A DNA stretch of 52,275 nucleotides, from IMG/VR virus record IMGVR_UViG_3300032893_000067, positions 1 through 52,275 of that record; one strand, 5' to 3'. A program made the position numbers and the translations under genes. Below the pieces are notes generated by a model. It worked only from the letters and a program-made list of their open reading frames with translations, was not told where the DNA came from and made no database searches. The stretch comes from a virus (taxonomy: Duplodnaviria; Caudoviricetes). This document shows positions 2,074-35,029 of this stretch, piece by piece. Positions within the stretch are counted from its first letter, which is position 1; every line of letters begins with the position of its first letter.

Positions 2074-2084
2074 TTCATATCTCC

Positions 2085-2441: not shown

Positions 2442-2443
2442 TG

Positions 2444-3465: not shown

Positions 3466-3466
3466 T

Positions 3467-3766: not shown

Positions 3767-3806
3767 TTCTTTATTACTCCTTTTGAATAGCTTTCTAATT
3801 AATAAT

Positions 3807-3836
3807 ATTATAGTCGCTAATATAGTCATTTGTCAA
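3807..3836 (-). promoter_or_regulatory. sigma70-type promoter
   Basis: TTGACA-N18-TATAAT on minus strand. Confidence 0.7.
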
Positions 3837-3838
3837 CA

Positions 3839-4177: not shown

Positions 4178-4905
4178 TTTAAATTCTCACACATTTGTTT
4201 TAATAACATGTTGCTATAATTTGCAGCGGCTTGAGAAGTTCCTGACATGTATCCAAATAAGTTATTAGGAAATGTTGAATAAATTTCAGTACCTTGCATC
4301 CATTTCATATTATAAAGTCCATAATTGCTTGTAATATTTCTTCGGCCATCTTTTAATAGATTACCAATTGGAATAAGATTGACTATATGATATTTGGCTG
4401 GAAAGTAATCGTTACCTTTTTGAGATAGATCCATTCCATTATTCCCGGCGGCCACAACTATTTTAGTTCCAAGATCTGATATCTCTTTTAATACAACATA
4501 TTCTTCAATACTTGGTTCTATTCCTCCAGATGAATAATTAATAAGATCAAAGTGTTTCTTCAAAGCCAATTGAAAGCATTTGACACTATCTTTAATAGCT
4601 TCAGATTCTTTGTAATCTGGAATTCTTTTCTCTACATATCTACAGGATTGCATTATAACTTGATTACAGACGTCCTTTAGAATAAGGCCTGCGATGTGGG
4701 TGCCGTGGTACATAGAATCTTCGTAATTGTAGCCTGGGGAGTCTTTAACATGCTTTTTAATCTCAAGATGTGATAAGTCTACCCCTGTATCAACTATTAA
4801 TACATTAATTTCTTTCCCCTCACAACTATGCGGAAGTAAAAAGAATATAAAAGCCATTACAAATAATATAGCGCCTATAGATATTTGTCTTAAAAACTCA
4901 GTCAA
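4174..4905 (-). CDS. subtilisin-like S8 serine protease, exported or anchored
   Basis: VDTG, HGTHIAG, AAGN, SGTSQAA catalytic motifs; N-terminal hydrophobic segment. Confidence 0.92.
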   Translation of the reverse strand: MTEFLRQISIGAILFVMAFIFFLLPHSCEGKEINVLIVDTGVDLSHLEIKKHVKDSPGYNYEDSMYHGTHIAGLILKDVCNQVIMQSCRYVEKRIPDYKESEAIKDSVKCFQLALKKHFDLINYSSGGIEPSIEEYVVLKEISDLGTKIVVAAGNNGMDLSQKGNDYFPAKYHIVNLIPIGNLLKDGRRNITSNYGLYNMKWMQGTEIYSTFPNNLFGYMSGTSQAAANYSNMLLKQMCENLK

Positions 4906-6056: not shown

Positions 6057-6412
6057 ATAATAGTCGATTTAAATCCATTATCATCTGTATAATAAACTTC
6101 TTTAATATCTAATGTCTTAAGCATTTGAAGACATGAAGAACATGGGAATGCTTTTGCCATTCTACCGCCGGGTGTTTCTCTAAAAATATAAATACTACAA
6201 TCTTTAAAGTTATCTAACTTTGAATTCAATATTGCATGGAATTCTGCATGAACCATTTTAAATTTATGCGGGGATCTTGTATGTGTTTTTAATTGATTAA
6301 CTCCAAAGCTAATAGGCTTGTTTTTATAAACTAATACACATCCCATTTTATGTTTGTGATGGTTTGAAAGTTTAGATATCTTTCTTGCCAAATCAAAAAA
6401 GTTCTTATTCAT
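6053..6412 (-). CDS. Zn-dependent cytidine/deoxycytidylate deaminase family protein
   Basis: HAE and PCSSC motifs. Confidence 0.88.
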   Translation of the reverse strand: MNKNFFDLARKISKLSNHHKHKMGCVLVYKNKPISFGVNQLKTHTRSPHKFKMVHAEFHAILNSKLDNFKDCSIYIFRETPGGRMAKAFPCSSCLQMLKTLDIKEVYYTDDNGFKSTII

Positions 6413-6639
6413 CGTATCTTATTACCTAAATGTTTATAAGGAATTATTAAACTAAAGATTCGTTTATTAATAGTTATAGTTAATACTAATTTTCTTTTTC
6501 TATCTTTATTCAATTCATTCTTATTTTTTAATGTTGTAAAATAGAAATCATTATAAGTATAACAATTAAATGAGAATCTAAATGAATTAAGATCTTCTTT
6601 ATAATATTCTATTTGTATAGGACTTCTTAGTAGTTTCAT
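6409..6639 (-). CDS. hypothetical protein
   Basis: ATGA overlaps on both sides. Confidence 0.6.
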   Translation of the reverse strand: MKLLRSPIQIEYYKEDLNSFRFSFNCYTYNDFYFTTLKNKNELNKDRKRKLVLTITINKRIFSLIIPYKHLGNKIR

Positions 6640-7208
6640 TTTCTTTCACCACATTTTTCACAATAGTCATATTCTTCCTGTAAACCTTGGTAATGTTTCC
6701 AGATATGAAAACAGATCGGTTCAGTTAAAACTTTAAATGTAGGATTACTAAAAATAGTTCCTAATGGGGCTTGTATTGGATAAAATGTTATGTCATTCCA
6801 ATTTGTTCCTTGATAAAATCCATAAGTATCACATGTAACCCAATTTGTTTCGAGAAAATTATCCGGTTCTGTTCCTTTTTCCCAAACTTTTATATAATCC
6901 TTTCTAAATTCGAAATAATAAGTTCCAGGAGATAGTATATCTGTTTTTTTGAGGAGAGACATTTGAGGTACTCTTGTATCTTTTTTCCATACATCTTCTA
7001 CGGATGGAATTAATTCATATTCTTTCATTTCTGGGAATTCTTTAGAAGCTACAAGAAGAGATGTTTCAATACCACAAATAAAACCAACTATTCTTGCATC
7101 TAATGGAAGATTTTCATCCATAAACTTTTTTATTTCAACGCTTGTTAATCCTGCTCTTCTATCTATTCCAGGAATAATAATACTAGCAAGTTTTCTATAA
7201 ATTTTCAT
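6636..7208 (-). CDS. hypothetical protein with C-terminal Zn ribbon
   Basis: CFHIWKHYQGL...YCEKC. Confidence 0.65.
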   Translation of the reverse strand: MKIYRKLASIIIPGIDRRAGLTSVEIKKFMDENLPLDARIVGFICGIETSLLVASKEFPEMKEYELIPSVEDVWKKDTRVPQMSLLKKTDILSPGTYYFEFRKDYIKVWEKGTEPDNFLETNWVTCDTYGFYQGTNWNDITFYPIQAPLGTIFSNPTFKVLTEPICFHIWKHYQGLQEEYDYCEKCGERK

Positions 7209-7432
7209 TTCTTTACCTCATTACATTTTGTACAATAAGTATCTTTTTGATTCAATCCAATATATTCTTTCCAATCATGTTCACATTTTATGGCAGATTT
7301 TGTGAATTCTAATTGTTGTCGTGGAACTATTTTTCCTTGTTGTTCTAATTCATTCATTATAGCATCAATTTCTTCTTGTGAAAGATTCAACATTCTAACA
7401 TCTTTTGGATATAATAGATTTATTTCAATCAT
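7205..7432 (-). CDS. small protein with C-terminal Zn ribbon
   Basis: CEHDWKEYIGL...YCTKC. Confidence 0.65.
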   Translation of the reverse strand: MIEINLLYPKDVRMLNLSQEEIDAIMNELEQQGKIVPRQQLEFTKSAIKCEHDWKEYIGLNQKDTYCTKCNEVKK

Positions 7433-7435
7433 TTA

Positions 7436-7708
7436 TCACTCATTTCTATAAATAATCGGTTGTATTGTGCTTCCATATGGTATCTTTTTAGCTTTCTTAA
7501 AATTCTTATAACTATTTCCACATCGAAAACATCCTTCATAATCAACTATCATTGAAGGTTTATTTCCATAGAACTCTTTTCTCTGTTTCAATGGAAGAGT
7601 TTTAAAATATTCATTGAACTTTTTAACTTCAGATTCTGCGTGTTTTCTTGTAACACAAAAATGGACCCAATGACAATCGCGGCACTCGGCCATTTTATAC
7701 TTAAACAT
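7436..7708 (-). CDS. Zn-finger hypothetical protein
   Basis: CRDC and CFRC pairs. Confidence 0.65.
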   Translation of the reverse strand: MFKYKMAECRDCHWVHFCVTRKHAESEVKKFNEYFKTLPLKQRKEFYGNKPSMIVDYEGCFRCGNSYKNFKKAKKIPYGSTIQPIIYRNE

Positions 7709-7952
7709 TTTTCATATCCTTTACCAATTGATCTAATACTTTTTTCATTTCAATTATAGCATTTCGCCTTTCATTCATCACCGGAAATGTTTCTAATCTT
7801 TTAATTTCTTCTTGTAATTTCTCATTATAAAACTCGTTAAAATATTGAAATGAATCCTCAAATCCTTTTACGTAAAGATTTAAATTATTATTGGCTGGGA
7901 CTTTAATACTTTTGAATCTATCCATAGCTATTGACAGAAGCTTTCTATTCAT
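7701..7952 (-). CDS. hypothetical protein, probably leaderless
   Basis: Start MNRKLL at 7952 sits 7 nt after a TATTAT -10 box. Confidence 0.6.
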   Translation of the reverse strand: MNRKLLSIAMDRFKSIKVPANNNLNLYVKGFEDSFQYFNEFYNEKLQEEIKRLETFPVMNERRNAIIEMKKVLDQLVKDMKNV

Positions 7953-7959
7953 ATATAGT
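7931..7959 (+). promoter_or_regulatory. sigma70-type promoter for 7967..8314
   Basis: TTGACA-N17-TATAGT, ATG 7 nt downstream. Confidence 0.65.
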
Positions 7960-7988
7960 ATAATACATGATATCAGAATTATTTGCAA
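7960..7988 (-). promoter_or_regulatory. sigma70-type promoter for 7701..7952
   Basis: TTGCAA-N17-TATTAT on minus strand. Confidence 0.55.
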
Positions 7989-8314
7989 GTACTTGTTTAA
8001 TGTTTAATACTGTACCGGATGCTGCAAAATATACCCCAGCTTGTATAAGTGCTACTAATGCAGCTATAATTCAATCTAATGTCAAATCTGATTTAGATAA
8101 TATGGAAAATAGCTTCAATAGGATTGTAGATCGTGAGGCTAAGAAAGAAATAAGTGAGCCTGTCATGTGGGGTCTTGGCGCCGCTTATTATGTATATCAA
8201 CATAAAGATAATCCAGGACTTAGTCTTAATTTTGCTTTTAAACCTTATGTAGATAGTATGGGATTAAATGTATATAATAATACATTGGGTACTACTTTAA
8301 TTTGGTATTGGTAA
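7967..8314 (+). CDS. lone plus-strand envelope-type protein (moron-like)
   Basis: Only plausible plus-strand gene in left arm; own promoter; Cys pair; ends in beta strand TTLIWYW. Confidence 0.7.
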   Translation: MISELFASTCLMFNTVPDAAKYTPACISATNAAIIQSNVKSDLDNMENSFNRIVDREAKKEISEPVMWGLGAAYYVYQHKDNPGLSLNFAFKPYVDSMGLNVYNNTLGTTLIWYW

Positions 8315-8869
8315 TCAGGGATTTAGATCTATTCCTAAGGACAGCGTATGGTTTGTTAGGACTGGGGTTATAATGTTATTAAGCTTCAGGTATTTATTAC
8401 CGTCGAAATGAACTAGGAATATGTTAGCTTCAAGTCCCATTAAAGGGACAGCGGACCAACCGTGTTCATTATGAACTGAATAGGGTTCAATGCCAAGTTT
8501 GGTAAATTCATTATCATCTTGGAAATAAGTGCCTAATAAAAATCCTAAATACAATTGATTAGTTCTAAGACCGACTGAATAAGTTCCACCATAGATTTGT
8601 TTACCAATAGAATTACTTCCTTCAAATAGTCTAACAGTTTGATAAACTTCACTTTCATCAAAGTTATATTGTATTCCAAATAGTGGATTGAATATTAGTT
8701 TTCCATCTTGAGACCATTTAGTTTGATATTGGGAAGATGCTCCATCTGCAATTAAATGATAGGTAACTCCACCGCCAATAGTTTCAAAGCTATTTGCTCT
8801 AACTGTTTTATAAACAAATGTTATTAATAAAAATCCTATAAGAATTAAAAAGAAATCATTCTTGTTCAT
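8315..8869 (-). CDS. exported beta-strand-rich protein, possible outer-membrane beta barrel (PagP-like layout)
   Basis: Signal peptide MNKNDFFLILIGFLL...VRA, then alternating Gly/aromatic strands (GGGVTYH, NPLFGIQY, NSIG, YLGFLLG). Confidence 0.55.
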   Translation of the reverse strand: MNKNDFFLILIGFLLITFVYKTVRANSFETIGGGVTYHLIADGASSQYQTKWSQDGKLIFNPLFGIQYNFDESEVYQTVRLFEGSNSIGKQIYGGTYSVGLRTNQLYLGFLLGTYFQDDNEFTKLGIEPYSVHNEHGWSAVPLMGLEANIFLVHFDGNKYLKLNNIITPVLTNHTLSLGIDLNP

Positions 8870-9029
8870 TTTCAGACTCCCATATGAATAAGCTATTTCC
8901 ATAAACAGGAGGTAGCATTCCTTCTTTTTCTATAAGATCCAATAGTTCTTGGGCCATTACATCTGGATACTTAATATCATTTTGCCATAAATAATCTGCA
9001 ATTTTGTTTATCATTTCACTTCGTTTCAT
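8856..9029 (-). CDS. hypothetical protein
   Basis: MKRSEMI...EKEGMLPP; trimmed start. Confidence 0.6.
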   Translation of the reverse strand: MKRSEMINKIADYLWQNDIKYPDVMAQELLDLIEKEGMLPPVYGNSLFIWESENEQE

Positions 9030-9333
9030 TTTTAGACTCCAAAACTTTTTGTAAATTTGTTCCACATTTTGTCATGCTTATATAATCTAAATGTTCGGCA
9101 GTAAAGTTTTTTAGAATATCACGTGCTGCTTTGGTAAATTTCTTAATTTGACAATCTTGTTCAGATAAAGCAATTTCAATAAGATTCTCCATTATTGTTC
9201 TCATTTTCCATGCTTCATAAATCATAATTTCCTGATAATGTTCTTTTGGAAATGATGTTTCTACTACATCAATTGCAAGTTGTCTAGCTTTAATTTTTGG
9301 ATCAAATGCCCAATTTAAATTATTTGCTTTCAT
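9016..9333 (-). CDS. hypothetical protein
   Basis: 105-aa ORF in operon. Confidence 0.6.
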   Translation of the reverse strand: MKANNLNWAFDPKIKARQLAIDVVETSFPKEHYQEIMIYEAWKMRTIMENLIEIALSEQDCQIKKFTKAARDILKNFTAEHLDYISMTKCGTNLQKVLESKNETK

Positions 9334-9443
9334 TTAACACCATCCTGCTAATTTCTCTTGCCATTAAATCAACTTGTGGCTTAATAACTTTTACATAGAA
9401 TATAATAAATAATAGATTAATTATGATTGATATAAATAATATT

Positions 9444-9647
9444 TTAAACGTCCTTAACATCTTTTAATCTCTCTTTTAAATCGTCGATATAACTTAATAC
9501 TTTATATCCTAATCCTTGATTAATAAAATCCATTGGACTTGCCAAATTAAAATGCATATGGGGAGTTGTAAGCCATGCTTTAATAACTTCTGAATCATAT
9601 CCTATATCAGTATTAAGTCTTTTAATGATCAATTCTAATTCAGTCAT
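9444..9647 (-). CDS. stand-alone Xre/MbcA/ParS antitoxin C-terminal (DUF2384-like) domain
   Basis: IKAWLTTPHMHFNLASPMDFINQGLGYKVLSYI fits the WL-x2-P-x3-(F/L)-x4-P...G-x3-V pattern. Confidence 0.7.
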   Translation of the reverse strand: MTELELIIKRLNTDIGYDSEVIKAWLTTPHMHFNLASPMDFINQGLGYKVLSYIDDLKERLKDVKDV

Positions 9648-9789
9648 TTCTTTTTCCTAAGTCTCAATAGTTCAATATAAGCTTCAGTAATATACTTTGG
9701 ATCTTTAAATAAATTCTTTATAACGCGATTTTCGTACCACCACAAATTTAACCAAAGTGCAAATAGAATTAGTACCAATAAAAATATAA

Positions 9790-10053
9790 TCATTTCAGAT
9801 ACTCCTTTAAAGACAAATCATCTAGAATTCCTTTAACAGTTTCAGGCTCACATTTAAATCTTTCACATATATCTTTTAACATAACTTGTTTACAATTGTC
9901 ATAGTAACTTTTATAAACGTCTATATGCAATACTGGATTCTCTTTATTCAATACATCTTGTAATTGATCTGTTAAATCTTTTGTAATAACTTTAAAGTGT
10001 TGCACATTGTGGATTAGGTCTCTAATCACCCATTCTTCTAATTCAATACTCAT
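9790..10053 (-). CDS. hypothetical protein
   Basis: 87-aa ORF in operon. Confidence 0.6.
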   Translation of the reverse strand: MSIELEEWVIRDLIHNVQHFKVITKDLTDQLQDVLNKENPVLHIDVYKSYYDNCKQVMLKDICERFKCEPETVKGILDDLSLKEYLK

Positions 10054-10054
10054 T

Positions 10055-10321
10055 TCAATTCACCGTTTCATTTCCAGAGCTATTAAAAGTATTCAATACA
10101 GATTCTTGAATTCTATCTGAAATAATTATAACCATATTAGTTGCGAAATAGTTATCCAATTCTTCTTTTGTTAGATTTTTTGCGAATTCTAGTCCTAGTT
10201 CTAAACAATCATCGGGCGCGAATTTTTCGCCGGTCAATATTTTTTCAGAGACGAGTTTCATAAACTTCATTTCAAGTTCATTTAATTTATTACCTAAATC
10301 TAAAGTCTTTTGTATTTTCAT
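10055..10321 (-). CDS. hypothetical protein
   Basis: 88-aa ORF with GAGG RBS. Confidence 0.6.
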   Translation of the reverse strand: MKIQKTLDLGNKLNELEMKFMKLVSEKILTGEKFAPDDCLELGLEFAKNLTKEELDNYFATNMVIIISDRIQESVLNTFNSSGNETVN

Positions 10322-10324
10322 ATA

Positions 10325-10633
10325 TTAATCCTCAAAGTTTAATGATTCATAAAAATCATCGTCATTATCATCGTAATCATCTTCATCTTCAAATAGATTA
10401 TCTGAAACATAATTCTCAATATATTCAATATCTTTTTCTGTTAATTGTTTATTAACTACTTTATTATTTTCATCATAAGCAATATATTCTATATCTTTTA
10501 CAAAGCCTCTAATCTCTCCACGGTTTCCATCAATATCATCGCCGTATTTTTCTTTTGTAAAAGTTGCTTTTGCTTCTACAAATACATCGCCTAAATTTTC
10601 TGAACCAAATTCAAATTCGATTAATTGTTTCAT
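10325..10633 (-). CDS. acidic hypothetical protein
   Basis: AGGAG RBS before MKQLIEF; Asp/Glu-rich tail. Confidence 0.65.
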   Translation of the reverse strand: MKQLIEFEFGSENLGDVFVEAKATFTKEKYGDDIDGNRGEIRGFVKDIEYIAYDENNKVVNKQLTEKDIEYIENYVSDNLFEDEDDYDDNDDDFYESLNFED

Positions 10634-10643
10634 TTTAATACTC

Positions 10644-10844
10644 CTATAGTTTAGAAATATGACCTTTAATATTATTCCAAAAGTTCTTTGTACTTTCATC
10701 AACGGCGGACTTTGACATATGATCGGCTTTTGAAAGTGCTGTCTCTTTATTTCCGACACTTGCAACAAATCCTCTTGCAAAGTCTAAAGCATCTTGAACT
10801 TTAAGTTTCTTTGGTTGAACATCTTTTTTTCCAGCATTAGGCAT
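10644..10844 (-). CDS. hypothetical protein
   Basis: AGGAG RBS, 66 aa. Confidence 0.65.
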   Translation of the reverse strand: MPNAGKKDVQPKKLKVQDALDFARGFVASVGNKETALSKADHMSKSAVDESTKNFWNNIKGHISKL

Positions 10845-11118
10845 TTGAATCTCCTTTCATTTCTTTTGGAAGTCTTGTACGAACTTCGTCTTGAAATTGA
10901 ACTCCAAGTTCTATAAGAGCTTTCTTAACTTGTTTCTTTGTTTCCGTTAAATGAATTCCTACGCCAAATTTTAATTCATTGCCGGGGTCTCTAACTTCTT
11001 CAATTTGCCATGCATTATTTGGATAAATAGTTACATAAACAAATTTATTAATAGCTAAAAGTCTTTTTGAATTTGTCAATGTTCCGTCTTCATTTCTCTT
11101 ATAAGTAACCCTAGTCAT
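10837..11118 (-). CDS. hypothetical protein
   Basis: AGGAG RBS, 93 aa. Confidence 0.65.
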   Translation of the reverse strand: MTRVTYKRNEDGTLTNSKRLLAINKFVYVTIYPNNAWQIEEVRDPGNELKFGVGIHLTETKKQVKKALIELGVQFQDEVRTRLPKEMKGDSNA

Positions 11119-11477
11119 TTAATATCTCCTTTATTATAAGACATTTTTCTATAAATTTCTAATGGATTTAAATGTTTATTTTTTATTCCAAATTTTACAC
11201 TTTTATTTTTTTCAATTAAAGTTTTAAATTGAATAAGCAATTCAGGATTTACGTTTTTATTTTTTAATACGGTTGATTTAAAAACTCTATATTTAAGATT
11301 TCCGGGATGTTTTTTATTAAATTTAATTGTTTTAATTTTACTTTTTTTCAGATATTCCCGGCGGCCAATTTTTTCACACCATTTATACCATTTTAAAGTT
11401 GCTTCAGAAATAATAGGTTTTATTGAATATTTTTGAACCCATTTAGATTTTGAATAGCGAGTATTTGGCATAGTCAT
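11115..11477 (-). CDS. basic hypothetical protein
   Basis: AGGAG RBS, Lys-rich. Confidence 0.6.
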   Translation of the reverse strand: MTMPNTRYSKSKWVQKYSIKPIISEATLKWYKWCEKIGRREYLKKSKIKTIKFNKKHPGNLKYRVFKSTVLKNKNVNPELLIQFKTLIEKNKSVKFGIKNKHLNPLEIYRKMSYNKGDIK

Positions 11478-11507
11478 TTTACATCTCCTAAAATATTATA
11501 ATACAAT

Positions 11508-11747
11508 TTAAATTTTTTTGCTATAAATAAATGAACCTTTAAACTCTCCAAATTCTGCATAGTTATGATTATTTCTTTCTAATTCAACTACAGCAATTTC
11601 TAATTCATCTAAGTTTACATTGGTTAATTTCTTTTCCCATAATGCTCGGACCCAAACAAATAAGTCCTCAACTGTTGGGCAATATCTCGCGCCAGATACG
11701 TTATAAACAAAGATATATTCTTCTTCAGATACTTTAAAAAGTTTCAT
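11508..11747 (-). CDS. hypothetical protein
   Basis: AGGAG RBS, 79 aa. Confidence 0.6.
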   Translation of the reverse strand: MKLFKVSEEEYIFVYNVSGARYCPTVEDLFVWVRALWEKKLTNVNLDELEIAVVELERNNHNYAEFGEFKGSFIYSKKI

Positions 11748-12416
11748 TTATTTGCTCCTTTTGCTTTGTAAATGTTGAACTTTTCTTATAGCTTTCATGA
11801 GATTGTAATAAGCGTGACATTGATCTTCTGTCAATCCTTCTTTTTTACCTATTTCTAAATATTTCTCTTTCCATTCTTTCATTGAATAGAAATAACAACC
11901 AATTTGAACGCCTTTTGGAAGTGAAGTAAAAAGCCAATTTAAGTTTGTTATATTTGAGCATTGATGAAATTTCTGGACCCGTGCTTTGCCAGAGACCTGT
12001 GCTTTGCCAGAGACCTGTGCATCGCCAAAGACCCGTGCTTTGCCAAAGACCCATGCATTGCCAGAGACCTGTGCATCGCCAAAGACCCATGCATTGCCAA
12101 AGACCTGTGCATCGCCAAAGACCCGTGCTTTGCCAGAGACCCGTGCTTTGCCAGAGACCCGTGCATCGCCAAAGACCCATGCATTGCCAGAGACCTGTGC
12201 ATCGCCAAAGACCCGTGCTTTGCCAGAGACCTGTGCATCGTCAGAGACCCATGCATTACCACTTTGATTCAAATTACTTTCTTTTTCTATATATCCACCT
12301 AAATCACCTTTTGTTATATAAGAAAAAGATATTAATGCGCGGATTCTAAACATTTTAATACCAAAAAATGTTTTTTCTGTTTCTAATGCTAATTCAAATT
12401 TTTTAGAATTGTTCAT
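11748..12416 (-). CDS. hexapeptide-repeat (left-handed beta-helix-like) phage protein
   Basis: FRIRALISF...KGDLGGYIEKESNLNQSGNAWV followed by G(N/D/K)A(W/R/Q)V(S/F) repeats. Confidence 0.85.
   Translation of the reverse strand: MNNSKKFELALETEKTFFGIKMFRIRALISFSYITKGDLGGYIEKESNLNQSGNAWVSDDAQVSGKARVFGDAQVSGNAWVFGDARVSGKARVSGKARVFGDAQVFGNAWVFGDAQVSGNAWVFGKARVFGDAQVSGKAQVSGKARVQKFHQCSNITNLNWLFTSLPKGVQIGCYFYSMKEWKEKYLEIGKKEGLTEDQCHAYYNLMKAIRKVQHLQSKRSK
11978..12258. repeat. 18-bp imperfect tandem repeat encoding the hexapeptide
   Basis: Units such as gtgctttgccagagacct / gtgcatcgccaaagaccc, about 15-16 copies. Confidence 0.9.
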
Positions 12417-12612
12417 CGTCTTGTCCTTCCCAAGTCACGCCAAGTAACTCGTCTATTAAGTAATTAAACATGTCATCAGCTTCTTCATAAGTTAAATCTG
12501 GTTTATAAATTGAACTATTGCCAGAAAGTCTTAAACATGTATAAGTTCTGGACTCTTGATCTCTCATTACAATTATTTCTGTGTGTAACAACTTGAACGC
12601 TTTGATTAACAT
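12403..12612 (-). CDS. hypothetical protein
   Basis: 69-aa ORF with AAGG RBS. Confidence 0.6.
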   Translation of the reverse strand: MLIKAFKLLHTEIIVMRDQESRTYTCLRLSGNSSIYKPDLTYEEADDMFNYLIDELLGVTWEGQDDEQF

Positions 12613-12624
12613 TTTACTTTCCTT

Positions 12625-12822
12625 TTAATAAATATAATCAATTACAAAATAGCCTCTTTCAGTGTTAATATATGCTACTTTTATTTCTCTATTAATTTTA
12701 AAATAGTGAATTACTTCTTTTGGAACGGTGCAAAATACTTCATGTTTTTTAGTATTAGTTGTAGCAAAAAAATATCCAAGATCTTTATTTACTTTTGTAA
12801 TTTTAGCTTTATAAAATCTCAT
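12625..12822 (-). CDS. small OB-fold-like hypothetical protein
   Basis: GAGGTG RBS; AKITKVNKDLGYFFA resembles a cold-shock/S1-type strand pattern. Confidence 0.55.
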   Translation of the reverse strand: MRFYKAKITKVNKDLGYFFATTNTKKHEVFCTVPKEVIHYFKINREIKVAYINTERGYFVIDYIY

Positions 12823-12840
12823 AAATCACCTCTCAATATA

Positions 12841-13305
12841 TTATTCGGCTTTTACGTATAAAACTTTAGATAATTTTTCAATATATTTATTTTTATGCTT
12901 TAAAGTCTTGGAATGGTACCTGCCAATCCAATTTGAATCTTTTTTAGACCATTTGGATCTTATTTCATTTAAAAGCTTCGCGGCGCAGTATGCCGATCCT
13001 TCGGGTGTCTTTAAATCAAATCCAATACATTTAGATCTATTAACACTATTGATTTGAAATATTCCTGAATCTGTGGTGCCATTTTTATTAACTCGGGTTT
13101 GAAACTTTAGACCGGATTCAACCATGCCAATAGATTCTAATAGCAATGGATCTATATGATAAGTCTGTGATGCCTGTAAAATTGCCTCTACAACTCTCTG
13201 TGAAGGCTTGTAGCCGTTTCTTTGGGCCAAATCATACATTGCATCGGTTATTTCCGAAGCGCGGCTCATAGACGATATTAAGAAGCAAATTATTAACTTA
13301 AACAT
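12841..13305 (-). CDS. lytic transglycosylase (SLT, IagB/PilT-like)
   Basis: IDPLLLESIGMVES, DSGIFQINS, AAKLL, IGRYHS; signal-like N-terminus. Confidence 0.9.
   Translation of the reverse strand: MFKLIICFLISSMSRASEITDAMYDLAQRNGYKPSQRVVEAILQASQTYHIDPLLLESIGMVESGLKFQTRVNKNGTTDSGIFQINSVNRSKCIGFDLKTPEGSAYCAAKLLNEIRSKWSKKDSNWIGRYHSKTLKHKNKYIEKLSKVLYVKAE
12842..12868 (-). promoter_or_regulatory. sigma28 (FliA)-type promoter
   Basis: TAAAGTTT-N11-GCCGAATA versus consensus TAAAGTTT-N11-GCCGATAA. Confidence 0.75.
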
Positions 13306-13495
13306 TTTTCACCAACTTTAGACATTTTTTACAGGTTACATTTAAATCTGGTCGATCACTCCATTGTATAGCAGGAACTTCGCCACATAATGATTTATAG
13401 GCATAGGAATTTTCATCCGGAACTAAATGAACTATTTTGCCTTTTCCTCTTTCAGCGCCGTTAGCTAATTTTCCAGCTTTTACCATTGTCTTCAT
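13298..13495 (-). CDS. small Zn-binding protein
   Basis: VHLV...SLCG...VTCKKC; start lies about 12 nt after a sigma54 box. Confidence 0.65.
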   Translation of the reverse strand: MKTMVKAGKLANGAERGKGKIVHLVPDENSYAYKSLCGEVPAIQWSDRPDLNVTCKKCLKLVKNV

Positions 13496-13507
13496 ATAAA
13501 TATCTAA

Positions 13508-13523
13508 TGCAAAGTGAATGCCA
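13508..13523 (-). promoter_or_regulatory. sigma54 (RpoN)-type promoter
   Basis: TGGCATTCACTTTGCA: GG-N10-GC. Confidence 0.72.
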
Positions 13524-13840
13524 ATATTAAGTTAAATATATTAGATTTGGGCGGTTATTTATTGTAGAATTTATAAACAATATTTGTAAATTATATAAAT
13601 TATTAGTTATTTCTTAGACATGTTTAAATTATTTACGTTTCCAATACTTATGGAATAGATATAGGATTGTAATAGGAATAGCTCCAGGAATTATTAAAAG
13701 GCCTAAAATAAATAATATAGTAGCCAAAAAGTTCATTTTAAAATCAATACAATTGCCATTACAGCAAATATAAAGGTTATAAATAAATTCAATTTTTGTT
13801 CACATCGCTCATGATGTTGTTTACTTGTCATTCGCATAAA

Positions 13841-14104
13841 TTACCTCAATGTTTCTTTTTTTTTGTATTTTTGTTTTTCTTTTTCATTTTTTAGCTTCCA
13901 TTTATCATAGAACTTCCCTGACATATAACGCTCTATCATAACTTCATTTGGGTTATGATTCATAAAATGAGTCTCAAACTCTTTTACGCGATTGCATATA
14001 AAAGTAGACTTTTGTTCACATAAAGGGCATACAAGACAAGCGAATGTTCTCTTAAAACAAGGATGAGTTGATAAGATTGCCATTCCAATATAACTATTTC
14101 CCAT
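13841..14104 (-). CDS. C2H2-like Zn-finger hypothetical protein
   Basis: CPLC...HFMNH; AGGTG RBS. Confidence 0.6.
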   Translation of the reverse strand: MGNSYIGMAILSTHPCFKRTFACLVCPLCEQKSTFICNRVKEFETHFMNHNPNEVMIERYMSGKFYDKWKLKNEKEKQKYKKKETLR

Positions 14105-14107
14105 AAA

Positions 14108-14422
14108 TCACCTACATTTCACACAAAAACCATCGCCTGGACTTCCCCAGGCATCGCATAACTCTTGTCCGCATTCACAATAGTTATTTTCGTAACAAGT
14201 CTGACAAAGTGTTTCGCCTAAATCGGTTTCGCTATTGCACTCATTGCAAGTATTTTCAACTCCAAATAAAATACTAAGTTTCCACCATACCAAATGTGAA
14301 TAATGTTTATATCTGTGCAATTTGAAATGAGTTATAGGTTGTAAACTATTAAATTCAATTAAGAATTTATGGTTTAATACTTTCATTTTAAGCACCTTTC
14401 TTAAATTTAGTCCTATAATCAT
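14108..14422 (-). CDS. Cys-rich hypothetical protein (start may be MKVLNH)
   Basis: CNEC, CQTC, CECG, CVKC. Confidence 0.6.
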   Translation of the reverse strand: MIIGLNLRKVLKMKVLNHKFLIEFNSLQPITHFKLHRYKHYSHLVWWKLSILFGVENTCNECNSETDLGETLCQTCYENNYCECGQELCDAWGSPGDGFCVKCR

Positions 14423-14594
14423 CTAGATTGTAAACCTTTGCATTTGGTTTCAAATCATAAAAACCCATACGCTTTTTAAGTTCACTAGATTCTTTAATAA
14501 AATTAGTTACATAAAGTGCCCAATCTTTATAACCATCTAATTCATATTGGTTAGTAATTTCTTTTTGAGTATGTAATCCAATTACTTTTCCCAT
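14388..14594 (-). CDS. hypothetical protein
   Basis: 68 aa, AGGT RBS. Confidence 0.6.
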   Translation of the reverse strand: MGKVIGLHTQKEITNQYELDGYKDWALYVTNFIKESSELKKRMGFYDLKPNAKVYNLDDYRTKFKKGA

Positions 14595-14602
14595 AAAAAT
14601 AC

Positions 14603-14872
14603 CTATTCCTTTCTTAACTTTAACATTTCTTTATTAGAATCAATTAGTATCTTTTTAAGTTCATTCATATATTTTATTTTTGTATTGACTAATCGTTTTT
14701 GTAATTCAGTTCTAACACTTTCAGTTTCAGGCATCCAAAACCCACCATCACCAAACAAATCAGTAAATGTTTTTGCTCTAATTTCAGATTCTTTAAAGTC
14801 TAATGCTTTTTCAATTCTTTCTATAAGAAGTTCATTTTCTGCTAACATTTTATAAATTTCTGCTTTAGTCAT
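14603..14872 (-). CDS. coiled-coil hypothetical protein
   Basis: GAGGT RBS, downstream of sigma28 box. Confidence 0.65.
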   Translation of the reverse strand: MTKAEIYKMLAENELLIERIEKALDFKESEIRAKTFTDLFGDGGFWMPETESVRTELQKRLVNTKIKYMNELKKILIDSNKEMLKLRKE

Positions 14873-14894
14873 AATTACCTCACTTTCAATATGC

Positions 14895-14922
14895 TAATCG
14901 GTATTATTCTTTAAATACTTTA
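14895..14922 (-). promoter_or_regulatory. sigma28-type promoter
   Basis: TAAAGTAT-N12-ACCGATTA. Confidence 0.62.
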
Positions 14923-14929
14923 GCACTTT

Positions 14930-15163
14930 TTATCCGTTCATCCAACTTTCATCGTCAATGACCTTTGGGCCAACTTTTGGGGCCGTAGTTCCATGTTTCA
15001 TGACAAAGTGACTCATTTTAGCATCAACTTTGAATGCATAATATCCACAACCATGACACTGACCTCGCTTATTTACAGTGGTTGGTTTAGGACTGTTAGC
15101 CTTTGTATCGTCGTATCGACCATCAAAGTCACATTCACATACATAAACATATTGTTTTTTCAT
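14930..15163 (-). CDS. Zn-binding hypothetical protein
   Basis: CEC and CHGC. Confidence 0.6.
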   Translation of the reverse strand: MKKQYVYVCECDFDGRYDDTKANSPKPTTVNKRGQCHGCGYYAFKVDAKMSHFVMKHGTTAPKVGPKVIDDESWMNG

Positions 15164-15177
15164 TTAACTTTCCTTTC

Positions 15178-15357
15178 CTAATCAATATCACCAGTTGCTT
15201 GGAAGCTATTCTTTGAGTTATTTGGAATAGCCCGATGCCAGCCGACAAGCTTAAGGTCTGAATGTTCCCGACCGGAATGTCTAACAGTGCCTTTCACAAA
15301 GAGCATTTCGCCTATTTTTGCACCATGATCGGCAATGTTAGGTCGATTGTTTCCCAT
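15178..15357 (-). CDS. small ORF, possibly a gene remnant (not in track)
   Basis: MGNNRPNIADHGAKIGEMLFVKGTVRHSGREHSDLKLVGWHRAIPNNSKNSFQATGDID; GC-richer than flanks. Confidence 0.5.
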   Translation of the reverse strand: MGNNRPNIADHGAKIGEMLFVKGTVRHSGREHSDLKLVGWHRAIPNNSKNSFQATGDID

Positions 15358-15359
15358 TG

Positions 15360-15536
15360 TTAATTGGAAACGTCGATCGTTTTTTGTTCTGTATATTCAA
15401 CGTCAAAAATAGTTACGTGTGGTTTAAAATTCTTAATAAATAAGTCCATGTCACTAGAATGAACATGCCACATTAATTCGCCATTATAATAAATCTCATA
15501 TTCATTTTGTTTTTCAATATAATAAGCTTCCCACAT
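15360..15536 (-). CDS. small hypothetical protein (not in track)
   Basis: 58 aa MWEAYYIEKQNEYEIYYNGEL...; GAGAGGTGATTT RBS. Confidence 0.65.
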   Translation of the reverse strand: MWEAYYIEKQNEYEIYYNGELMWHVHSSDMDLFIKNFKPHVTIFDVEYTEQKTIDVSN

Positions 15537-15556
15537 AAATCACCTCTCAAATATAC

Positions 15557-15583
15557 TATTCGGTATACTTTCAAAAAACTTTA
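15557..15583 (-). promoter_or_regulatory. sigma28-type promoter
   Basis: TAAAGTTT-N11-ACCGAATA. Confidence 0.72.
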
Positions 15584-15586
15584 GCA

Positions 15587-15751
15587 TTATTTTACTAATT
15601 TCAATTTTTGTCCAAATTTAAGCACTTTCCAAATTTCTGACTCTAAGGCCAACATATGTGGAATATCTCTGTATCGGACTGTTAGTACAAGTCTGTGACC
15701 TTTGTAGACCCTAATTTTCTGTTCTTTGCATCGTAACACAGTAAACATCAT
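15587..15751 (-). CDS. small hypothetical protein (not in track)
   Basis: 54 aa MMFTVLRCKEQKIRVYKG...; AGGGG RBS. Confidence 0.55.
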   Translation of the reverse strand: MMFTVLRCKEQKIRVYKGHRLVLTVRYRDIPHMLALESEIWKVLKFGQKLKLVK

Positions 15752-15769
15752 TATTCCCCTTTCACATAA

Positions 15770-15797
15770 TCATCGGCCAATTTAACCAAATAGTTTA
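15770..15797 (-). promoter_or_regulatory. sigma28-type promoter
   Basis: TAAA-N16-GCCGATGA. Confidence 0.5.
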
Positions 15798-15965
15798 CAA
15801 TTGATGTAATAAACAATATAGAAGTTATAGCAAGTAACATAGCATCACCTCTTAAAAAAATTTCGGGCATCTGTAACAATACTGACAATGATAATATAAC
15901 TAATACTAAATAAGCTAAGTAATATAAACAATCCTATGTATCCAAATATAAGTCCTAAAGCTAAG

Positions 15966-16157
15966 TTAATCATTTTTAGACTCCTGTTTATTTTTATATT
16001 CTCTTTTAAAGCAATAATCATCTGCGTCTTTCTCATATGCAAAACTAACATAATCAGCACCAGATTCTGCACCTTTTACGACAAATAACTCTAGTTCCTC
16101 ATCATATTGATAATATATTTCTTCATTGGGTATCTTTTTAGGCTTATACATAACCAC
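15966..16157 (-). CDS. small hypothetical protein
   Basis: GAGGTG RBS downstream of sigma54 box. Confidence 0.6.
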   Translation of the reverse strand: MVMYKPKKIPNEEIYYQYDEELELFVVKGAESGADYVSFAYEKDADDYCFKREYKNKQESKND

Positions 16158-16175
16158 CTCTTGACTTAATACTAT

Positions 16176-16191
16176 TGCATGAATTGTACCA
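16176..16191 (-). promoter_or_regulatory. sigma54-type promoter
   Basis: TGGTACAATTCATGCA (GG-N10-GC); overlaps a weaker TTGACG-N15-TACAAT alternative. Confidence 0.55.
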
Positions 16192-16404
16192 AGTAATTAT
16201 AAACGTCAATAGAACTATTGTATTGGTTTATAGGTATAAGTAATATAAGAATAGGTGATAACTAATATGACTGATTTAACTCAATTTAAACATTTTAAGG
16301 GCAATTCAAAACCCTTCTTTTTTGTATATCTTTTAAACACAAACGTCTATCTAGCTTATTTTACTAGTTATTTCTTAAACATAGATAAAACTTATACAAT
16401 CCAA

Positions 16405-16516
16405 AAGAAGAGAAAGACAGGCTTTTTTATTATTACACTACGGACAGTGGCGTTACAAACACAGTCCTTTATGTTGTAACGATTGTTGAGGTTAACTGTT
16501 CGAAACAATTGTTAAT
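16405..16516 (-). ncRNA. candidate small RNA
   Basis: No ORF after a strong sigma70 promoter; hairpin CGTTACAA...TTGTAACG with AAGGAC apical loop, plus CACTG-TCCG-TAGTG. Confidence 0.4.
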
Positions 16517-16522
16517 TTCTTT

Positions 16523-16551
16523 ATTATAACACATTTTAAATTAAAAGTCAA
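16523..16551 (-). promoter_or_regulatory. sigma70-type promoter (extended -10)
   Basis: TTGACT-N17-TATAAT with TG just upstream of -10. Confidence 0.72.
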
Positions 16552-16611
16552 GCAAATAATTCACATAGTTATATTAAGTTTATAGGGTTATAGTTGAATT
16601 TGTGTATAAGT

Positions 16612-16658
16612 AAAGGGGAAAGCCCCAGGTCAAGCGGGGGATGCTCAACCTTGGGGCT
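16612..16658 (-). terminator. GC-rich hairpin, likely terminator
   Basis: AGCCCC...GGGGCT stem followed by TTTCCCCTTT on minus strand, downstream of two small ORFs. Confidence 0.5.
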
Positions 16659-16702
16659 ATTAGAGGGTTTGCGGGGCATTTAAATAAGGACTAGAGGGAC
16701 TA

Positions 16703-16828
16703 TCAGTGGACAGGGACAATCTTAAAACCGGCATTCTCCAATCTTTGGACTGAGCCAAGCTTAGTGACAATGTCTTTAAGAGTCATTGGACCTGTTATTC
16801 TATAACCGTTCTCAACTACATAGTACAT
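16703..16828 (-). CDS. small hypothetical protein (not in track)
   Basis: 41 aa MYYVVENGYRITGPMTLKDIV...; GAGGTG RBS. Confidence 0.6.
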   Translation of the reverse strand: MYYVVENGYRITGPMTLKDIVTKLGSVQRLENAGFKIVPVH

Positions 16829-16835
16829 AATCACC

Positions 16836-16991
16836 TCATTTCAGACCACAAATATATTTATAATCAGCATTAAAAATTGTAACATCTTTGTAGCAACCAA
16901 ATCTAATGGCTTCCCAAAGAGTTACAAAGTAAGCAATTTCAATACCTTTTTCTACTACAATATAATTATAATTTATAAGATCGAATTCCAT
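16836..16991 (-). CDS. small hypothetical protein (not in track), first gene of left arm
   Basis: 51 aa MEFDLINYNYIVVEKG...; GAGGT RBS directly after sigma54 box. Confidence 0.6.
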   Translation of the reverse strand: MEFDLINYNYIVVEKGIEIAYFVTLWEAIRFGCYKDVTIFNADYKYICGLK

Positions 16992-17015
16992 AAATACCTC
17001 TTATATATATATTAA

Positions 17016-17031
17016 TGCAAAGTATGTACCA
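17016..17031 (-). promoter_or_regulatory. sigma54-type promoter
   Basis: TGGTACATACTTTGCA (GG-N10-GC). Confidence 0.72.
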
Positions 17032-17038
17032 ACAATGA

Positions 17039-17051
17039 TATCAACTACTTA
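17039..17051 (+). promoter_or_regulatory. IHF consensus site
   Basis: TATCAACTACTTA matches WATCAANNNNTTR. Confidence 0.5.
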
Positions 17052-17134
17052 GCTATATCAAAAATGTATAACTTATATACAAAAATAAATATTATTAATC
17101 AATTCACATAGTTATAAATTATACACTGTATAAT

Positions 17135-17241
17135 TGGTACACTTATTGCAAGAAGAATCTATTGGTATAAATATTGTATAATAATGCAAATACTATACCA
17201 TAATTATTGGTACATATATTGCTATTGCAAGAATCATGCCA
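17135..17241. promoter_or_regulatory. cluster of five sigma54-type boxes in both orientations
   Basis: 17135+ TGGTACACTTATTGCA; 17163+ TGGTATAAATATTGTA (imperfect); 17185- TGGTATAGTATTTGCA; 17208+ TGGTACATATATTGCT; 17226- TGGCATGATTCTTGCA. Confidence 0.68.
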
Positions 17242-17264
17242 CACATATAGAGTATAGGCAGCCA

Positions 17265-17294
17265 GGGGTAGGGGGGGGGGGGTAGACTTGGGGG
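17265..17294 (+). repeat. G-tract (G4, G12, G5) at the strand switch
   Basis: GGGGTAGGGGGGGGGGGGTAGACTTGGGGG in AT-rich background. Confidence 0.8.
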
Positions 17295-17489
17295 TTTAAA
17301 ATAACTTTACTAGTCAACACGACCATTTTTAAAATATCGACTCTAGTAACATCCCTTTTACCCCGTATTACTAAGAAATCCTATAAATAACGTTTTTGAC
17401 CTTAAATATTATCATGTATCCTATTGATTCTATTAGATCGAATATATGAGACTGAGTATATAATAAATATGTAGACAATATAGTAACAC

Positions 17490-17499
17490 TTAACAACTA
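17490..17499 (+). promoter_or_regulatory. putative phage late promoter box
   Basis: TTAACAACTA, 7 nt before ATG. Confidence 0.65.
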
Positions 17500-17506
17500 G
17501 TATTAA

Positions 17507-19804: not shown

Positions 19805-20263
19805 ATGAAAGCTATATTTTATAAAGAACATGTTATTAATAAAAATCATTATATTGAATATGAACTAAAAATTTGTCATAAATGCAACAAAACCAAATCT
19901 TGGAAAGACTTTAGTAGGAAGATAAAAGGTATTTTTGGTCTTCAACCTAATTGTAAAGAATGTTCTAAAAAATGGTGGTCTGAAGATCCTATTCGTCAAA
20001 AAAAGATTCAAAAAAATTCAAAGTTAAAAGCAAAATTTAATTTAACATTAGATCAATATAATGAAATTTTGACTCATCAAAATGGGAAATGTGCTATATG
20101 TCACAAAGTACAAAATAATGTTTCATTAGCTGTAGATCATTGTCATAAAACTGGAAAAATTCGTGGTCTATTATGTGGACCATGTAATCAATCCATTGGT
20201 CTTCTTAAAGAGGACTTACAAATTATTGAAAATTTAAAAGATTATTTAGAGAAATATAAATGA
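19805..20263 (+). CDS. endonuclease VII-family HNH nuclease
   Basis: QNGKCAIC, LAVDHCHKTGKIRGLLCGPCN. Confidence 0.9.
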   Translation: MKAIFYKEHVINKNHYIEYELKICHKCNKTKSWKDFSRKIKGIFGLQPNCKECSKKWWSEDPIRQKKIQKNSKLKAKFNLTLDQYNEILTHQNGKCAICHKVQNNVSLAVDHCHKTGKIRGLLCGPCNQSIGLLKEDLQIIENLKDYLEKYK

Positions 20264-21078
20264 ATAATAAACTTGAAAATAACGAAATTGATCTAAAAAG
20301 AACCGAAGATAAGTATATTCTAGATAAATCCCAATTACAAATAGTAAAACATAAAATTGAAACCTACCTACCACCTTATTATCCAGATAAAGGTGTTATT
20401 TATTGTATTAATAAATCAATTTATTTTGATTCTCCAGACCTAACTTTCCTTAAACAACATCTAAATAAAGTCGATGATAGACGTAAGATTCGTATAAGAA
20501 CCTATGCTCCTAATGGCAAATGGAACAATATTTATTTTATTGAAATCAAGTCTAAATCAGATGGAAAAAGTATTAAAACAAGAATTGAACTTACTCCAAA
20601 AGCATTTCAAGAAGTAATGAGAACAAATCAAATTCCAATTGATGCAGATCTCATAGAGCTTAATAAAGATGTCCCAAAAGACCAGCTATTACAGCGTGCA
20701 AAACTTATAAATTACACAATGTTAATTAATAAAGTTAGTCCTGTATGTGAAGTTACTTATAAGAGGTATGCCTACCAAGAACACGAATCATTACGTGTCA
20801 CTATTGATTCAGAAATAAAAGTTCGACCACTTAAAATGATCAAATTTAATGTTATAGAAGATTTAAAGAACCAAGATCTTTGGGATGAACTAAAAGAATA
20901 TGGTGAGAAGTTCTATAATCAAGACAATTTTCTTCTAGAAGTTAAACATGAAAAGAATAATATTCCACAATGGCTAGAAGATTTAATTGAAAAATTTGAT
21001 GGTGAATGCCAGGGCTTTTCAAAATATGTCTGGGGCATGTTTCAAATAATGAGTAATACTCTTAAACTTTTAAAATAA
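20260..21078 (+). CDS. VTC-domain (CYTH/triphosphate tunnel) protein
   Basis: RTEDKY, SIYFDSPD, RRKIRIRTY, FIEIK, VTYKRYAY, RVTID, LLEVK, FSKY. Confidence 0.88.
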   Translation: MNNKLENNEIDLKRTEDKYILDKSQLQIVKHKIETYLPPYYPDKGVIYCINKSIYFDSPDLTFLKQHLNKVDDRRKIRIRTYAPNGKWNNIYFIEIKSKSDGKSIKTRIELTPKAFQEVMRTNQIPIDADLIELNKDVPKDQLLQRAKLINYTMLINKVSPVCEVTYKRYAYQEHESLRVTIDSEIKVRPLKMIKFNVIEDLKNQDLWDELKEYGEKFYNQDNFLLEVKHEKNNIPQWLEDLIEKFDGECQGFSKYVWGMFQIMSNTLKLLK

Positions 21079-34018: not shown

Positions 34019-35029
34019 ATGTCTGAACAAGTTACTAATGCCCAAACTGCCGTTTCTGATGCAGTAGAATCAATTCAACCCTCTCAAGAACAAACTCAGG
34101 ATACAACAGAACAAGCCGAAGGTCAAGAAGTTTCTTCTGCTGCTCCAGATCAAGCCAAAGCTCAATTAGAAGCCCTTGCTAAAGATCCTAAAGCCTCTAA
34201 AGCAGAGAAGAAAGCCGCTAAAAATCTTCTTAAAAAGCTTACTTTGAAGGTAGATGGCGAAGAATTTGAAGAGGAACTTCCCTTTGAAATCCCTAATGAT
34301 CCTAAAGCTATAGAATATATGAAGCGCGAGCTTCAATTAGCTAAAATGGGTCAAAAAAGGGCTCAAACTGCTGCTAATTTAGAGAGAGAAGTACTTCAAT
34401 TCGTTGAAGATTTAAGAAAGAACCCTCGTAAAGCTCTTTCAGATCCAGCAATTGGCTTGGATCTTAAGAAATTAGCTGCTCAAATCATTGAAGAAGAAAT
34501 TGAAAACTCTAAAAAATCTCCAGAACAGCTTAAAGCAGAGCAATTAGAAGCTGAACTTAAGGCTATGAAAGAAGACCGAGAAAGAGAAAAGCAAACTCGT
34601 GAACAACAAGAGTTTGAAAGGCTTAAAGAACAAGAATATGAGCGTATTGATATGCTTATGTCTCAAGCCCTTGAAAAGAGTGATCTTCCTAAGACTCCTG
34701 CTGTTGTTAGAAAAATGGCAGAATATATGTCAATTGGCCTACAAGCCGGTAAAGATGTATCTCCTGCAGATGTTCTACCAATTGTTCGAGAAGAAATCAT
34801 CAATGATTATCAACAGTTATTGAATTCTCTTCCCGATGAAGAAGTTGAAAAGTTCATTGGTAAAGATAGAATTAATAGTATTCGTAAGAAGAGTATTGCA
34901 AAGGCAAAACAAGCCGCTGCTAATCCAGCTTTAAAGGCACCTTCGAAGGCAACTGATACTGGTAAAGTAACAAAAGAACAAAAAGAAGCTGAGAAAAAGC
35001 AAAGTTTTAAAGATTACTTCAAATTTTAG
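34019..35029 (+). CDS. capsid scaffolding protein
   Basis: Acidic disordered N-terminus, LKVDGEEFE, long helical coiled coil, upstream of capsid genes. Confidence 0.8.
   Translation: MSEQVTNAQTAVSDAVESIQPSQEQTQDTTEQAEGQEVSSAAPDQAKAQLEALAKDPKASKAEKKAAKNLLKKLTLKVDGEEFEEELPFEIPNDPKAIEYMKRELQLAKMGQKRAQTAANLEREVLQFVEDLRKNPRKALSDPAIGLDLKKLAAQIIEEEIENSKKSPEQLKAEQLEAELKAMKEDREREKQTREQQEFERLKEQEYERIDMLMSQALEKSDLPKTPAVVRKMAEYMSIGLQAGKDVSPADVLPIVREEIINDYQQLLNSLPDEEVEKFIGKDRINSIRKKSIAKAKQAAANPALKAPSKATDTGKVTKEQKEAEKKQSFKDYFKF

Follow-up and report, generated by a model that had tools for sequence, protein, structure and literature searches.

Sigma-28-like promoter candidates ahead of small early genes in a phage from a wetland metagenome

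Class 3 flagellar promoters of Escherichia coli and Salmonella carry the sigma-28 consensus TAAAGTTT-n11-GCCGATAA (PMC2859248). At the E. coli aer promoter, as described in the same source, the natural -10 box is GCCGACAT, transcription starts 6 bp past the -10 octamer, and changes in T1, A3 or G5, or in the CCGA core, abolish activity (PMC2859248, Table 1). In Bdellovibrio bacteriovorus the arrangement TTAAG-N16-CCGATA is given for 92 of 140 mapped attack-phase promoters (PMC3627812). Among phages, phiEco32 and 7-11 are described as encoding sigma factors with their own promoter classes (PMC8948821), and a FliA-dependent promoter is reported from an invertible segment upstream of prophage csrA-tldR loci (bioRxiv 10.1101/2025.07.22.666180). 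Here we analyze a 52,275-base linear stretch of DNA, the whole of IMG/VR virus record IMGVR_UViG_3300032893_000067 (hereafter the window), in which four sites, P1 to P4, located between positions 12842 and 15797, resemble promoters of this kind. Textbook phages start on the housekeeping sigma factor of the host and bring in factors of their own later; gp28 and gp33/34 of SPO1 are phage-encoded sigma factors with their own promoter classes. Recognition by sigma-28 is widely conserved and the promoter type is known; what would be new is its employment at the start of the early arm of a phage, and a full-text search of the literature found no paper that describes early genes of lytic phages under sigma-28 promoters of the host. 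We propose sigma-28 (FliA/SigD/WhiG) class promoters at P1, P2, P3 and possibly P4, most likely read by FliA of the host, and put the probability of this reading at about one half.

The phage is uncultured; the window originates from a wetland metagenome, has a G+C content of 32% and is estimated to be 61% complete; it looks like part of a phage of approximately 85 kb with terminal repeats, lytic by appearance. From position 1 to approximately 16.1 kb the genes run leftward and are small, mostly without known family and so tightly packed that most abut or overlap; this arm also encodes an ERF recombinase, a PD-(D/E)XK nuclease, an S8 peptidase and an SPFH protein. From 17.5 kb the genes are mostly rightward and comprise terminase, portal and structural genes. 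All four sites lie on the minus strand, which is the coding strand at each. P1 (12868..12842; CTAAAGTTT-N11-GCCGAATA) falls within the last codons of an SLT-like gene (12841..13305) and matches the sigma-28 consensus at 14 of 16 positions. The remaining three match at 13 of 16: P2 (14922..14895; CTAAAGTAT-N12-ACCGATTA) in a 57-nucleotide (nt) intergenic gap, P3 (15583..15557; CTAAAGTTT-N11-ACCGAATA) in a gap of 50 nt, and P4 (15797..15770; TAAACTAT-N12-GCCGATGA), a weak candidate, in a gap of 93 nt between listed genes.

Agreement with the consensus is closest in the -35 octamer, where P1 and P3 match at 8/8 positions, P2 at 7/8 and P4 at 6/8 (with G5 changed to C); in the -10 octamer the corresponding values are 6/8 (P1), 6/8 (P2), 5/8 (P3) and 7/8 (P4). 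The CCGA core is present in all four sites, and P1, P2 and P3 additionally retain T1, A3 and G5 of the -35 box. The octamers are 11, 12, 11 and 12 nt apart in P1 to P4, which fits the sigma-28 spacing of approximately 11 nt. The distance from the CCGA core to the ATG is 25–29 nt in every case, with a Shine-Dalgarno (SD) site between the two. The leader of P1 (12823..12841, minus strand) consists of an ATATT block and the SD word GAGAGGTGAT, and P1 and P3 have in common a longer stretch, GAGAGGTGATTTATG, which includes leader and SD. The original prediction had described four sigma-28/FliA-type motifs on the coding strand just ahead of ribosome-binding sites, two of them sharing sequence, and had cited the FliA consensus together with the FliA promoters of attack-phase Bdellovibrio. 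Both of these are in print (PMC2859248; PMC3627812), the motifs fit the published consensus in boxes and spacing, and position, strand and shared sequence all hold; as promoter candidates P1, P2 and P3 are confirmed, whereas P4 is doubtful.

The number of matches to a loose pattern does not, on its own, depart from chance: TAAA-N15-17-CCGA occurs six times in the window against an expectation of 3.67 +/- 1.99, 18 of 100 shuffles reach six, and a second test gives an expectation of 3.64 (P = 0.16). For the strict pattern TAAAGTNT-N12-13-CCGA the window contains three matches, compared with a mean of 0.037 in 1000 first-order Markov simulations of the window, of which none reached three and the maximum was two. 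In five metagenome-assembled genomes (MAGs; 17.6 Mb) the same pattern occurs 35 times, or approximately twice per Mb, with 51 matches for the reversed control. Matching to the 16-nt consensus with equal weights is noisy because the DNA is A+T-rich: at a threshold of at least 13 of 16 the scan returned 12 entries at 11 places, against 3.16 expected, and seven of these places lack CCGA. The strongest argument against chance is position relative to SD and start codon. In four of the six loose matches in the window the CCGA lies 25–29 nt before the start of an open reading frame (ORF) of at least 40 amino acids (aa) with an SD-like word, whereas in a background of 1,382,919 bases from 80 phage loci, mostly distant or unrelated, an SD and a start within a wider range of 18–45 nt accompany just 6 of 133 loose matches. 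P1, P2 and P3 are clearly not chance matches, and the strict pattern is far from chance.

Three complete relatives with terminal repeats are available (G001, 85,261 bp; G002, 89,281 bp; G003, 85,057 bp), of which G001 is closest, with 68% identity in the portal and 78% in a 416-aa structural protein; three further, near-whole relatives (G006:C114, G007:C237 and G009:C6) are contigs binned in MAGs. Three of the six carry a single cassette-like site each (G001 at 53479, G009:C6 at 66425 and G006:C114 at 21603), on the early strand and, like the sites of the window, at a distance of 6.8–12.3 kb from the portal gene. The site of G001 is canonical and directly follows a TTGACT-17-TATATT promoter. 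The genes behind the three sites are mutually unrelated, which suggests a promoter module that is kept while its cargo changes. A search of IMG/VR with TAAAGTNT-N12-13-CCGA-N12-20-GAGGTGA returned 31 loci; 13 of these represent one coding sequence, and at least 12 other, unrelated contigs carry true-looking cassettes complete with SD and ATG. In total, 20 cassette sites were catalogued in 14 other phage sequences, three of them relatives of the window phage. Six cassette-bearing IMG/VR contigs that were tested are not relatives, having no match to the 416-aa protein, and two contigs with the motif (L005 and L006) have no match among GenBank phages.

An alignment of P1 to P4 with the G001 site shows TAAA, T, TT and CCGA invariant in all five sequences and spacers that vary. 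Two kept boxes with varying spacers indicate a two-box protein-binding site, that is, a bipartite promoter and not a plain repeat. The stretches share no RNA fold and none is unusually stable (z-scores -0.44, -1.23, -2.53 and +0.26 for P1 to P4, with differing structures), a pattern that argues against RNA structure. The sites could instead be elements other than promoters, such as borders of recombination modules or operators to which a phage protein binds, and P4 could be a match by chance. The stretch common to P1 and P3 extends through leader and SD in the manner of a duplicated cassette, and there is a weak hint that P3 marks a mosaic border: among the DNA contigs of the four sequencing runs aligned to the window (at 80% likeness; no run is recorded as RNA), single variant contigs from two runs lose their match at 15557 and 15583, the two edges of P3, and one substitutes 15507..15847. 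An operator finds some encouragement in G001, where the -10 box of the sigma-28-type site shares bases with a half-site of a partly palindromic box that occurs repeatedly. Yet conservation is bipartite, with spacers that are free in sequence and fixed in length; a fixed distance separates them from the start codon; both boxes match one specific known promoter class; and both relatives and unrelated phages have such elements ahead of mutually unrelated genes. The roles of mosaic border and promoter are compatible, and we consider a purely non-promoter origin very unlikely. Of the partly palindromic box of G001, six copies, built around ACTATAGT, occupy the control region (52786-53515; L017, L133), one of them being the copy that overlaps the -10 box, and the element may be an operator.

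Several points weigh against assignment to the sigma-28 class. The case is built from sequence, from which start site, reader and timing are deduced, and the reader, most likely FliA, would belong to a host characterized in general terms only (below). Beyond the CCGA core the -10 boxes continue with AATA or ATTA, where the consensus has ATAA. P4 lies wholly within an ORF (15751..15888) that encodes a hydrophobic peptide, has a strong SD of its own and ends in a stop codon overlapping the ATG of the 54-aa gene after P4; this site may be a chance match. Half of the six relatives (G002, G003 and G007:C237) are without a convincing site. The window covers only 61% of the genome and the absent 39% leaves room for a sigma gene, and a divergent member of the sigma-70 family is encoded by G011, a phage unrelated to this one that has at least three cassettes. 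Finally, a sigma-70-like -10 hexamer follows each box: TATATT after P1, CATATT after P2 and TATATT after P3.

The last of these points opens the way to an account in which the genes are driven by sigma-70 through the TATATT-like hexamer, either alone or with a phage activator bound to the CTAAAGT box; in that case the likeness to sigma-28 promoters would be only partial, or secondary, or the sites would serve both holoenzymes. Middle promoters of T4, which depend on sigma appropriation and an activator, provide a precedent. In G001 the hexamer TATAGT follows the box, and a consensus scan finds TTTATA-16-TATATT at 12862..12835 with 9 of 12 positions matched. Against this, the region has no excess of sigma-70-like matches (53, with 52.9 expected), the corresponding -35 hexamers are poor and lack conservation, the invariant letters of CTAAAG and CCGA are left without explanation, and a start 7 nt past the hexamer would fall in or behind the conserved SD. 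We regard sigma-70 as a decidedly unlikely reader of these sites. The strongest sigma-70-like promoter of the region stands elsewhere, at 16551..16523 on the minus strand (TTGACT-17-TATAAT with TG, 11/12), upstream of the whole leftward arm.

The sites might also be read by a sigma factor of the phage itself, encoded in the missing 39% of the genome or too divergent for detection, in which case they would be middle and not early promoters. The third that is missing probably comprises the remainder of the early arm. In G011, an IMG/VR contig of 120,614 bp (a 120-kb phage), the sigma protein is 260 aa long (L205 1387-2169, minus strand) and matches TIGR02937 with 40.6 bits (E = 1.3e-11); its best models are of RpoD-like region 2 (E ~1e-11), and it falls under every cut-off. 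The original prediction had named a phage-encoded sigma factor that recognizes the motifs as a finding that would overturn it. Within the 61% of the genome covered by the window none emerged: the profiles TIGR02479, PF04545, PF04542 and PF08281 gave no sigma-70-family match in the window, and TIGR02937 gave none at E <= 10 either there or in the complete relatives G001, G002 and G003, the first of which bears a canonical site. A sigma-profile search of five records produced one weak region-4 match, in G002 (E = 0.0018). Three early proteins without family (195, 190 and 151 aa) have no sigma-like sequence match in the PDB at E <= 10, no window protein is found solely in cassette-bearing relatives, and G014, an unrelated phage that is 92% complete and carries a cassette, has no sigma match. 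The lack of a sigma gene in the window and in the complete relatives favors the sigma-28 factor of the host as reader; given the missing 39%, a phage sigma factor is possible, if rather unlikely.

The genes behind the sites offer few clues to function. P1 precedes genes for proteins of 65, 69, 222 and 79 aa (11508..12822, minus strand), the 222-aa product being a YdcK beta-solenoid or bactofilin-like protein and the small ones lacking a family. On the same strand P2 is followed by genes for 89, 68, 104 (cysteine-rich) and 87 aa (13841..14872), with no family at a useful E-value, P3 by genes for 58, 59 and 77 aa (14930..15536) and P4 by a gene for 54 aa (15587..15751), again without family. Ten small proteins encoded after P1 to P4 have no PHROG match at E <= 0.001, and their best Pfam match has E = 0.047. 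No flagellar, motor or chemotaxis gene, such as would characterize a flagellar/chemotaxis class 3 set, was found behind the four sites. In run X1 the contig depths over the YdcK/bactofilin-like gene (12007-12673) sum to 104, compared with approximately 14 for its neighbors; up to nine variant contigs at one place in this interval point to many related copies in the same sample.

If the sites are sigma-28-class promoters, then polymerase carrying a sigma-28-family factor would bind the boxes CTAAAGTWT and RCCGAWTA, 11–12 nt apart, and transcription would start approximately 6 nt past the second box. A start at this distance past the -10 octamer, as at aer, would place the whole SD inside the transcript: leaders of 13–17 nt are predicted (approximately 14 nt for P1), comprising little beyond the SD site. 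Each promoter would stand at the front of a few small accessory genes of the early arm, which follow closely on the divergent control region. With the flagellar sigma factor of the host as reader, expression of these genes would require, or be raised by, motility of the infected cell, and could continue if phage or cell shut down sigma-70 transcription. Were this so, infection would be coupled to swimming through early genes placed under the motility sigma factor. The arrangement would suit phages that meet or enter motile cells, and hosts in which sigma-28 governs a whole life stage, and would be a simple way of keeping early genes on during sigma-70 shut-off.

Besides the strong sigma-70-like promoter, the window contains two further classes of promoter-like sequence, and the other motif classes named in the original prediction do exist as sequence features. 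The first comprises sigma-54-like boxes, TGGYAY-N6-TGCW, of which there are eight against 0.74 expected (maximum of five in 500 simulations); a canonical sigma-54 promoter has the -24/-12 form. Seven of the eight are non-coding and cluster between 13.5 and 17.3 kb (13508-17241, on both strands), those at 17031, 16191 and 13523 lie 25–28 nt before start codons, and those at 17208 (plus) and 17241 (minus) overlap as an inverted pair. Similar clusters occur at the control region of G001, G003, G007:C237 and G009:C6. The boxes could be promoters or operators. An enhancer-binding ATPase was not found in G001 to G004 or in a phage of Silvanigrella aquatica (one weak match, E = 0.013), the window itself lying outside that search. 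The second class, the box TAACAACTA, occurs nine times (1.0 expected), at 17491, 19791, 22150, 28099, 33943, 35077, 41467 and 51741 on the plus strand and 22088 on the minus strand, each time shortly before a gene of the rightward or structural arm; it is probably a late or middle promoter of the phage, or an activator site.

Taken together, the sigma-54-type and sigma-28-type boxes invite a more ambitious proposal, namely that this family of approximately 85-kb phages runs the start of infection on the flagellar sigma cascade of the host, instead of or beside sigma-70. In this view a cluster of sigma-54-type boxes stands at the divergent control region and sigma-28-type cassettes come next, ahead of early accessory genes that can be exchanged; with these the phage would sense the building or use of the flagellum and set its early programme with neither a sigma factor nor an enhancer-binding protein of its own. 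We offer this as speculation and think it improbable.

Two features suggest what kind of bacterium the host may be. A PagL-like lipid A deacylase is encoded in the window, which points to a Gram-negative host, and SD-like words precede 55 of 90 genes, compared with 11.6% at random places, from which the host probably uses SD sites. On this evidence the host would be a low-G+C Gram-negative bacterium that uses SD sites, and we do not place it further. Bdellovibrionota, suggested as host in the original prediction, enter through one pointer, the terminase, whose best match among GenBank phages (32.5% identity over 89% of the query) belongs to the Silvanigrella aquatica phage; an alignment of the terminase against genome contigs gave no match. 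That phage (L004) has a G+C content of 33% but no cassette. Silvanigrellales are described as having flagellar genes and motile stages (PMC12321486). None of these facts ties the window phage to Bdellovibrionota; the interpretation given in the original prediction is supported in part, for the promoter class but not for the host.

The original prediction looked to the best matches of accessory proteins for the host, and here it was disappointed: homologues of the VTC, PagL and SPFH proteins are nearly all metagenomic, lie on phage-sized contigs and give no host, the accessory genes being those of phage families. Relatives of the 416-aa structural protein include nine binned phage contigs in MAGs whose labels conflict: beta proteobacterium, Flavobacteriaceae (two contigs, one MAG), Bacteroidales, Flavobacterium, Dolichospermum, Thermotogae and, twice, 'proteobacterium'. 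We considered these labels as a guide to the host and rejected them as binning artefacts. Bacteroidota rarely use SD sites, and the 55 SD-like words therefore speak against the Bacteroidota labels, an argument that leans on general knowledge of that group. A FliA match exceeded the cut-off in only one of five MAGs.

The accessory proteins merit brief description. The PagL-like lipid A 3-O-deacylase gene adjoins an RNA ligase and a polynucleotide kinase-phosphatase, an RNA-repair pair (38670-41143, minus strand); with the PagL-like enzyme the phage may remodel the lipopolysaccharide of its host, which would be unusual for a phage. A VTC-domain (polyphosphate-polymerase-like) protein is encoded at 20260-21078 on the plus strand and has 46 further homologues, several of them on contigs of 50–110 kb; its presence in G001 at 47% identity suggests a gene of the phage group rather than a recent acquisition from a host. 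The SPFH/prohibitin protein (2444-3292, minus strand) has 442 database relatives, many on contigs of approximately 80–85 kb, the closest being 83% and 72% identical. The window contains no tRNA gene; a tRNA-Ile gene (anticodon TAT) is present in the early arm of G001 (L017 15146-15218).

Searches for close relatives of the early arm yielded little. Megablast of positions 1-25000 found no match among GenBank phages, and tblastn found none there for a 336-aa protein (34019..35029). A DNA search with positions 1-17500 gave just two stretches of 63–65%, in one MAG. The PD-(D/E)XK nuclease, searched against viral and metagenome contigs, matched only the G002 record and a 1-kb piece, and the SLT-like protein has no relative among viral contigs.

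How, then, does the locus compare with the systems set out above? With phiEco32, 7-11 and SPO1 it would share the placing of phage genes behind a non-housekeeping promoter class, giving a temporal class. It differs in that neither the window nor the three complete relatives yielded a sigma gene, and in that the promoter matches a class of the host and not a private one. The csrA-tldR loci are accessory genes of temperate phages, concerned with control of flagellin, whereas the window has several early-arm promoter candidates and no flagellar cargo; a flagellar-sigma promoter on phage-derived DNA, a predicted one in the window, is nevertheless common to both, and these loci are the nearest item in the literature.

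The attack-phase promoters of B. bacteriovorus are chromosomal and have a slightly different -35 word; the motif of the phage is close to theirs but not distinctive. The G+C content of B. bacteriovorus is approximately 50%, as against 32% in the window phage. The likeness lies in the employment of a sigma-28-type promoter far beyond flagellar genes, which in B. bacteriovorus marks a motile, non-growing state. From the FliA class 3 promoters of E. coli and Salmonella the phage sites depart in preceding small genes without family, in -10 boxes that end AATA or ATTA and in predicted leaders of 13–17 nt. In their architecture they are nonetheless alike: two octamers separated by a spacer of 11–12 nt, TAAAG in the one and CCGA in the other, and a geometry that allows a start at approximately 6 nt.

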